DNA of 53,551 nucleotides from a virus (Duplodnaviria; Heunggongvirae; Uroviricota; Caudoviricetes). The notes beneath the pieces are model-generated. The model saw only the letters and a list, made by a program, of their open reading frames with translations. It did no database searches and was not told where the DNA came from. Below, one piece after another: positions 41,363-42,136 of the stretch. The DNA lies in IMG/VR virus record IMGVR_UViG_2859805564_000008. One strand, given 5' to 3'. The stretch's first letter is position 1; each line of letters begins with the position of its first letter. The position numbers were made by a program, and so were the translations under genes.

Positions 41363-42136
41363 TCAAAAATTAGGTGAGTAACGGACCGGGGACATAGCTC
41401 CTTTTTTTCTTAATTCATCTGGTATTTTTTTTCCAAGATAAAGATTTGCTATTTCAGGTGGGGCTTCTCGACCTTCAAAACCATAGCGCGAACTTTGTGT
41501 TGCCTCAAAGTCAGGATCCTCGTCCCAGTATTTCAACGAAGGGAAATTTTCACGTGTTGATTTGAGCCATTTATCAGCAATGAAAACCCCTCGAACGATC
41601 CCCCTTACAGTAGCAAGAATGATTTCTGCTTGGCTGGCGCGAGAGACATTAATGCGCCAGCTAAATCGAACCGCATCATAAAGCTCTGAATCCTTTGCAC
41701 TTCTGTTAACGGATATCATTAATGCTTTATGATGAAATGTTATGGTTTCGGGCTGATATGTTGCTATCAACTCTTTGACATGCGCGGCGCCGAATTCATT
41801 GCTGCCAGCACCATTCATGATATTCGTTAACCCAGGGTAGGCATCAATAAGTGCTGCTTCAACTTCGTACGCCGTCTTTTCATCAGTCATTCCGTGTCGA
41901 TGGATGACATGGATAACTTCAAGTCCTGCTAACCTTATTTCTCTAATTTGCTTTAGCTTGTTGCTCAGTAACTCGTCATCATCAGTCGCTGCCACTTCAC
42001 CGCGCATATGGGCAAATACGCGGTTACCTTTGCCTTTCCCTACATAGAAGGTGCTTCCGTCCCTCGGATCAATCAATCGGTATACATACCAGCCAAGGTG
42101 TTCAATTACTCCAGAAGGAAACTCAGTAATATCCAT
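41363..42136 (-). CDS. GIY-YIG nuclease-domain protein with uncharacterised ~160-aa C-terminal domain
   Basis: N-terminus WYVYRL...[14 protein letters not shown]...YEVEAALI...NIMNG has the GIY/YIG/Arg/Glu/Asn pattern of GIY-YIG nucleases; C-terminal half not recognised. Confidence 0.7.

Follow-up and report, generated by a model that had tools for sequence, protein, structure and literature searches.

A prophage nuclease gene between the tail genes and attR, identified from its sequence as a copy of the single-protein defence enzyme PD-T4-3/CMoRE

What might a solitary nuclease gene do between the tail genes and the right attachment site of a prophage? The question is raised by an intact, ATG-initiated open reading frame of 257 amino acids at 41363..42136 on the minus strand of a 53,551-nucleotide stretch of Caudoviricetes DNA (the window, by which we mean that stretch at its full length). 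The original prediction saw in it a GIY-YIG catalytic core fused to an unplaced C-terminal region, and considered a free-standing homing-type endonuclease, a second restriction-like nuclease or a novel single-protein anti-phage effector. By all appearances, the gene is nothing new but a run-of-the-mill copy of PD-T4-3/CMoRE, a defence enzyme that consists of a single protein and had been characterised before. The PADLOC PD-T4-3 model (PDLC04031) matches residues 1-256/256 of the window protein (E 7.6e-140). The protein is 97.3% identical to the E. coli O157:H7 CMoRE (PDB 9U75/9U8D), from which it departs at 7 of 257 positions, all of them conservatively, and 85.2% identical to the APEC O1 enzyme (9U7U/9U7Z; 38 differences over 257 amino acids). 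Every testable feature that defines CMoRE/PD-T4-3 is present. The proposal of a restriction-like, single-protein anti-phage nuclease was thus correct, whereas its supposed novelty does not survive the near-identity to a crystallised enzyme. The gene is real and almost certainly functional, and it very probably represents a working CMoRE allele, brought in by the prophage as cargo and encoding a type IV restriction enzyme made of one protein, whose individual steps we describe below by analogy with near-identical proteins.

PD-T4-3 came to light as an anti-T4 gene in a functional selection from E. coli (Vassallo 2022, PMC9519451), the main text of which speaks of 'a GIY-YIG nuclease' and not of PD-T4-3; it was characterised in 2026, when structures were solved and the protein was renamed CMoRE (PMC12923530). 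Annotation databases convey little of this. The window gene matches at 100% the DNA of the RefSeq gene for WP_000355482.1, which is labelled only 'LEM-3-like GIY-YIG domain-containing protein', and NCBIfam returned no model for the 257-residue protein; the homologous O157 locus carries WP_000355475.1, the accession used in the published characterisation. The immediate gain is therefore one of annotation, because the gene can now be named CMoRE/PD-T4-3 and given a known substrate, DNA containing 5-hydroxymethylcytosine (5hmC) or its glucosylated form (5ghmC), together with a solved structure. The gene is also widespread: it occurs at a nucleotide identity of at least 95% in 838 of 5,426 complete E. 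coli genomes (~15%), and the wider family falls into 6,548 clusters when grouped at 90% identity; even distant phyla have full-length homologues that are 55-60% identical.

Does the catalytic half bear out this identification? In the crystal structures of CMoRE, the N-terminal GIY-YIG domain carries one additional tyrosine, such that Y17, Y19 and Y31 make up a GIYxY-YIG motif (PMC12923530). The corresponding domain of the window protein spans residues 1-101 (41834..42136, minus strand), which we checked against the mutagenesis and structures of that study; Pfam assigns residues 28-110 to LEM-3_GIY-YIG (PF22945, E 2.2e-14), and all three tyrosines are in place (G15-W-Y17-V-Y19 ... F-Y31-V-G). 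This motif is invariant in an alignment of 28 family members, reaching 53% identity, as well as in two jumbo-phage homologues, and R39, E93 and N105, each present in the window protein, are likewise invariant among the 28 sequences. The original claim of an intact GIY-YIG core thus holds for the Pfam match, the tyrosines and the arginine, whereas its choice of glutamate and asparagine needed correction: in the same alignment the invariant glutamate is E93, with E91 being variable, and the invariant asparagine is N105 in 'GLTN' rather than the variable N108 in 'IMNG'. The 12 residues from E93 to N105 equal the gap from Glu76 to Asn88 in T. maritima UvrC; an N88A entry of that protein was among the fold matches. 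Fold comparison relates the nuclease domain to the GIY-YIG domain of UvrC (PDB 1YCZ and related), and weak Foldseek matches to 1LN0 and 3OQG reflect the fold that it has in common with GIY-YIG homing and type II restriction endonucleases.

The elements that restrain and assemble the enzyme are retained as well. In CMoRE, helices 2 and 3 are connected by an acidic loop that lies across the active site; a 4A mutant of this loop cuts ordinary DNA and is toxic. Tetramer formation needs V92/L96 within the dimer and the beta1-beta2 loop between dimers (PMC12923530). The window protein has the acidic loop as DDDE at positions 52-55, where all 28 aligned bacterial members carry three to six acidic residues; it has V92 and L96, and its beta1-beta2 loop (IDPRDGST) is identical to that of the O157 enzyme, so that tetramer formation is predicted from sequence. 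Residues 102-115 (41792..41833, minus strand), which include the invariant N105, form a flexible interdomain linker with an AF2 pLDDT below 50; both crystal structures of CMoRE likewise show disorder there (PMC12923530).

What, then, is the C-terminal region? It corresponds to the modified-cytosine sensor domain of CMoRE, here residues 116-257 (41366..41791, minus strand). The published domain holds 5hm-dCTP via the main chain of Y127, which contacts the 5-hydroxyl of 5hmC, and was described as 'a distinct fold with no sequence or structural homologue' (PMC12923530); Y127 is present in the window protein. The C-terminal ~140 residues have neither a Pfam match nor a non-self PDB sequence match, a PDB profile search with the domain retrieved CMoRE chains only, and a Pfam scan of 22 family C-termini yielded no family and no module of the NUMOD/HTH type. 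At the level of sequence searches it was therefore fair to call this region unrecognised.

The same searches bear on an alternative reading, a homing enzyme of the I-TevI/Seg type that stands on its own and would cut a specific site in genomes lacking the gene, thereby spreading itself. Such a reading can point to the GIY-YIG catalytic domain, to a weak match with the 'homing endonuclease' family phrog_314 (E 0.0022) and to the annotation of jumbo-phage homologues as 'putative homing nuclease'. However, neither the protein nor any of the 22 family C-termini shows a Pfam match to a sequence-specific DNA-binding module (NUMOD, IENR1, HTH or Zn finger), the C-terminus being a 5hmC sensor instead, and the phage family that matches strongly and over the full length is phrog_5356 (function unknown), which is not a homing family. 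Moreover, the gene lies outside any intron or intein and interrupts no conserved gene; every context inspected has it in the prophage cargo slot that runs from tfa or pinE to attR. The published enzyme, for its part, breaks down entire modified phage genomes and shows no strict sequence specificity (PMC12923530). We therefore reject the homing option, which we consider highly improbable, and return to the CMoRE assignment.

Might the sensor be related to known readers of modified bases? At odds a little short of even, it may be a cryptic, extremely divergent PUA-like (EVE/YTH/ASCH-type) modified-base reader; it also appears to be a portable module that has been fused elsewhere to other enzymes. 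Sequence-level support for a PUA-like sensor was negative in the Pfam scan of 22 C-termini and in the PDB profile search. A sensor-only profile matched 1,897 representative clusters at E <= 1e-3 and 841 at E <= 1e-10, many of which have architectures other than GIY-YIG plus sensor. Among these, the sensor is joined to a PD-(D/E)XK nuclease of the HSDR_N type (P0137, P0140), to a PLD/NgoFVII-type nuclease (P0210) or to a DSP-phosphatase-like domain (P0214), and it has a match in BFVD A0A8S5N646 (E 1.5e-9), a phage protein that bears a PD-(D/E)XK nuclease annotation. A further family of 630-720 amino acids (P0208, P0216, P0231, P0233, P0247, P0262, P0270) has an N-terminal CMoRE-type sensor followed by a conserved acidic region of ~500 residues, for which searches against Pfam, PADLOC and PDB and for simple ATPase or nuclease motifs gave no match. 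Domain shuffling of this kind is the behaviour expected of a modification-reader module. The PADLOC PD-T4-3 model matches the fusion proteins via its C-terminal, sensor half only, and automated annotation may thus over-call PD-T4-3 on the basis of half-length matches.

The published classification into four types covers GIY-YIG proteins only (PMC12923530), and the sensor fusions to other nuclease types extend it. If the sensor is indeed a PUA-like, portable reader, then CMoRE would be one branch of a much larger and mostly undescribed set of modification-sensing enzymes. The PUA-like look of the sensor and its fusion to other nuclease types are two side results that go slightly beyond the literature; they concern the family and not this locus, and could add to the known modification-dependent enzymes and to the tools for 5hmC mapping. 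A separate observation concerns jumbo phages, which encode full-length CMoRE homologues of 37-45% identity (among them Serratia phage Moabite gp009, L005 4001-4765; Pseudomonas phage OBP gp165, L006 3992-4753). These keep Y17, Y19, Y31, R39, E93, N105, Y127 and the sensor and lack the acidic autoinhibitory loop (one or two acidic residues versus three to six). Their annotation is that of homing nucleases, and they might serve to attack co-infecting phages whose DNA is modified.

How might CMoRE protect a lysogen? The published enzyme lowers the plating of T2, T4 and T6 ~10^5-fold; it binds and cuts DNA containing 5hmC or 5ghmC and neither binds nor cuts DNA containing cytosine or 5-methylcytosine (5mC), and its cleavage at CN11/N9G, which leaves 2-nt 3' overhangs, requires two modified cytosines (PMC12923530). 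An independent study found a 48%-identical homologue to be a modification-dependent nuclease that also acts on DNA of phage Mu. Cleavage specific for 5hmC/5ghmC and protection against T-even phages are thus known for proteins 97%, 85% and 48% identical to the window protein, and by extension the window allele should share them. We envision that the window protein would assemble as a tetramer, a dimer of dimers, in which each C-terminal sensor would bind one 5-hydroxymethyl- or glucosyl-hydroxymethyl-cytosine and one dimer would read two modified cytosines on opposite strands, ~21 bp apart. The GIYxY-YIG nuclease would then cut between them with Mg2+ or Mn2+ in the CN11/N9G register, again with 2-nt 3' overhangs. 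The DDDE loop at 52-55 would overlie the active site and repel ordinary DNA, such that only tightly bound modified DNA would be cut; that modified DNA outcompetes the acidic loop is the activation model of the original authors (PMC12923530). Host DNA, including 5mC-containing DNA made by the adjacent EcoRII methylase, would be spared, and genomes of the T-even type would be degraded early in infection without killing of the cell.

The latter point sets CMoRE apart from an abortive-infection toxin, a nuclease that would be unleashed on host DNA so that death of the cell protects the population. The toxicity of the 4A loop mutant, with its cleavage of ordinary DNA, does reveal a latent potential for self-damage. 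Yet cultures carrying wild-type CMoRE, 97% identical to the window protein, grow normally at an MOI above 1, T4 DNA is depleted in vivo with host DNA reads unaltered, and neither 5hmC DNA nor 5hm-dCTP activates cleavage of ordinary DNA in trans (PMC12923530). Abortive infection is thus a most improbable description of this gene, and early degradation without cell death instead points to direct immunity by CMoRE.

Where in the prophage does the gene reside? An exact direct repeat of 50 bp brackets the element: attL (1399..1448, plus strand) consists of the 3' part of tRNA-Thr(CGU) (1369-1444), with an integrase ORF close by at 1459-2622, and attR lies at 46889..46938 (plus strand). The tail genes J-lom-stf-tfa, in the order annotated in a 99.7%-identical locus, reach 41293. 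From the att repeats and the tail gene order it follows that tfa and attR enclose both the nuclease gene and the EcoRII module as cargo, which confirms the tail-to-attR slot assigned to the gene at the outset. The two cargo parts, with a GC content of 43.7% (nuclease) and 43.6% (EcoRII), stand against 51.8% in the rest of the prophage.

Several further features of the neighbourhood deserve mention. A strong Rfam match to the IS009 sRNA family (RF02111; 224.7 bits, with the gathering score at 117) at 41052-41250 on the plus strand is located wholly inside the tfa gene (40709-41293). Beyond attR (46939-53551) there are IS3-family ORFs (48690-49846), an IS630-like transposase (50598-51629) and IS1 (51881-52578); from 52580 onwards runs an ORF similar to a phage tape-measure protein, which suggests that the thrW hotspot harbours a second element, tandem or degraded. 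Other strains have at this hotspot, just past the CMoRE gene, ABC-three-component systems and a P4-like satellite with psu and ogr/delta (L003 11362-17029; L002 15307-18221). With further defence cargo beyond CMoRE in those strains, the locus behaves as a defence hotspot.

Is the nuclease gene a unit of its own? Between the convergent tfa and nuclease genes lies a GC-rich hairpin (41306..41342, no strand assigned), which by folding has a dG of -25.4 kcal/mol (z -3.76) and is followed on the minus strand by UUUUUCUUUUUU, as an intrinsic terminator with a U-run on that strand would be. A strict consensus scan of 41200-42560 returned no terminator and no intergenic promoter. The same hairpin terminates tfa in a prophage that has no nuclease gene, and we therefore regard it as a shared convergent terminator: the hairpin proposed originally is real, but it is not private to the nuclease. 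On the other side, the gap of 364 bp between the nuclease and methylase genes (42137-42500) is composite. Its nuclease-proximal 201 bp (42137..42337, minus strand), presumably the native promoter and leader, were inherited with the gene, being 99% identical in WCHEC020031, which has no EcoRII, and 91% identical in the O157 copy; past 42337 similarity collapses to ~40% identity, that is, to unrelated sequence, and the remainder of the gap belongs to the EcoRII module.

Similarity to other genomic contexts begins at ~41305 of the window. In other genomes pinE stands on the left, and on the right a tRNA-Ser-like fragment precedes an AraC-family gene or IS1. Together, the differing neighbours and the edges of similarity delimit a portable unit of ~1 kb (~41305-42337) that comprises the hairpin, the gene and 200 bp upstream. 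This unit recurs beside tfa or pinE on one side and beside EcoRII or the tRNA-Ser-like fragment with AraC/IS1 on the other, consistent with autonomy of the single gene. A junction probe detected the upstream segment in 844 genomes, 245 of which (~29%) continue into EcoRII, while ~600 have the segment without EcoRII; the whole 4.6-kb arrangement is carried by 241 genomes, and 209 share the junction on the tfa side. Since the gene's own 200 bp occur without EcoRII in ~600 of the 844 genomes, the promoter region that the original prediction had shared divergently with the methylase finds no support.

The right edge of the unit has a history of its own. A tRNA-Ser-like remnant with the anticodon stem-loop GGACCGGTCTCGAAAACCG lies at 42317..42335 (plus strand), and the O157 copy (L003 9003-9085) has 71 nt of the 3' part of tRNA-Ser plus 12 nt of flank, which by BLAST is 96% identical to annotated tRNA-Ser genes; the sequence is antisense to the nuclease gene, and the window keeps the anticodon stem-loop only. 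Rfam made no tRNA call on the O157 fragment and matched a plastid 3'UTR family overlapping the tRNA-like shape. Possibly, this edge is an old att-site remnant of an element that once carried the gene. Insertion of the EcoRII module into the tRNA-Ser-like fragment, with splitting of the latter, was considered and rejected: the missing 3' part is nowhere in the window, and the flank was thus replaced rather than opened by a clean integration.

Would this copy be expressed? A protein of the right family could be silent or non-protective in its host, owing to poor transcription or translation or to repression in the lysogen, and thus be a mere passenger. Neither the strict nor the relaxed scan found a convincing sigma-70 promoter or Shine-Dalgarno sequence upstream of the nuclease gene, and the relaxed scan gave weak sigma-70 matches only, the best being TTGTGA-17-TAATAT (42200-42172, 8/12). 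In clones with native promoters, whose length is not given in the methods, the O157 and Klebsiella genes protect ~10^5-fold and the APEC O1 gene only weakly (PMC12923530); the latter result makes the expression level of the window copy uncertain. For phage NIC06_P2, the activity in the native host differs from that on plasmid expression, and expression of a PD-T4-3 gene varies with pH. Against silence speak the intact ORF, nearly invariant in the 838 genomes that carry it, the strong protection conferred by two native promoters together with the 91-99% conservation of the upstream 201 bp, the report of an independent study that a homologue of the PD-T4-3 family works 'at very low expression levels', and the sensitisation of the native clinical isolate NILS69 to Tevenvirinae phages on deletion of PD-T4-3. 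A silent copy therefore seems unlikely to us, and the level of expression in its host is the only live caveat to a functional CMoRE allele.

How does the nuclease relate to its restriction-modification neighbour? The neighbour is an EcoRII system, with a C5 cytosine methyltransferase at 42501..43976 (plus strand; Pfam DNA_methylase, 4.7e-78, and DNA_meth_N; PADLOC MTase_II, 4.2e-230) and the restriction endonuclease at 44011..45225 (minus strand; Pfam EcoRII-N and EcoRII-C; full-length match to PDB 1NA6, E 3e-243), which we treat as a separate module. Conceivably, the nuclease could be a functional partner of EcoRII, for instance an additional nuclease that M.EcoRII controls or on which it depends M.EcoRII-wise, rather than an autonomous unit: it is divergent to the methylase across the 364-bp gap, its GC content is similarly low, and the two co-occur in 241-245 genomes. 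Co-occurrence is, however, far from obligate, as both are present in only those 241-245 of ~840 carriers, and in the ~600 of 844 that lack EcoRII similarity ends at ~42337. Furthermore, a single PD-T4-3/CMoRE gene protects alone when cloned, the enzyme neither binds nor cuts the 5mC product, and the EcoRII module is also found alone on plasmids. A partnership is thus very hard to credit, and CMoRE is better regarded as autonomous. In one genome carrying both (L004), the EcoRII endonuclease gene is broken by IS100. As a separate observation, a GC-rich hairpin (AAAAAGCCCGCATAAGCGGGCTTTT; 45275-45335, plus strand) with a weak STnc350-like Rfam match (E 0.08) lies just past the 5' end of the minus-strand endonuclease gene; probably, this is a terminator-like element that borders the EcoRII module.

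Side by side, EcoRII and CMoRE form a compatible two-layer restriction islet, in which one system addresses unmethylated CCWGG and the other 5hmC/5ghmC while ignoring 5mC. They would thus raise two complementary barriers, against unmethylated CCWGG and against hypermodified DNA, and might conceivably act in synergy. The window thereby offers a lambdoid prophage example of two putatively complementary restriction barriers in a b-region-like cargo slot. On a practical note, carriage of the two systems helps to predict which phages will fail on such lysogens, therapeutic T-even-like phages included.

The closest known systems are the O157 CMoRE (9U75, 9U8D), the APEC O1 enzyme (9U7U, 9U7Z) and the original PD-T4-3 of ECOR68, with which the window protein has length, architecture and single-gene organisation in common. 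It shares with the O157 and APEC O1 enzymes the GIYxY-YIG motif, the acidic loop, the interface residues and Y127, and the chromosomal neighbourhood is likewise the same: the prophages occupy tRNA-Thr beside proA and carry the gene at their right end. Compared with the O157 locus, the window differs in its left neighbour, a lambdoid tfa instead of pinE, and in its right neighbour, the EcoRII system instead of a tRNA-Ser-like fragment and AraC-family gene.

Beyond its own family, CMoRE most resembles in its logic the PvuRts1I/AbaSI enzymes, which likewise combine an N-terminal nuclease with a C-terminal reader of modified cytosine and prefer 5hmC/5ghmC over 5mC and C. Both kinds of enzyme disregard sequence context, act best where two modified cytosines lie on opposite strands at a spacing of 21-23 bp, cleave 11-13 / 9-10 nt away with short 3' overhangs and form dimers or tetramers. 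The nuclease, however, is GIY-YIG in CMoRE and Vsr-like in PvuRts1I/AbaSI, and the reader is different, so that CMoRE is not a member of that family. Type IV enzymes that join a PUA-like reader to a nuclease also rank among the closest systems, with the EVE-HNH enzyme VcaM4I (6YEX), the YTH/EVE-like N-terminal domains of McrB (6N0S, 6P0G) and the SRA-HNH enzyme TagI as examples. UvrC, in contrast, is a repair nickase of the UvrABC system without the third tyrosine, the 15-residue acidic insert or the sensor domain. I-TevI, the Seg proteins and the type II GIY-YIG restriction enzymes Hpy188I and Eco29kI share the catalytic fold with CMoRE. Unlike these homing and type II enzymes, CMoRE has no NUMOD/HTH modules, no sequence-specific site and no cognate methylase, and its activity depends on the modification of the DNA that it cuts.
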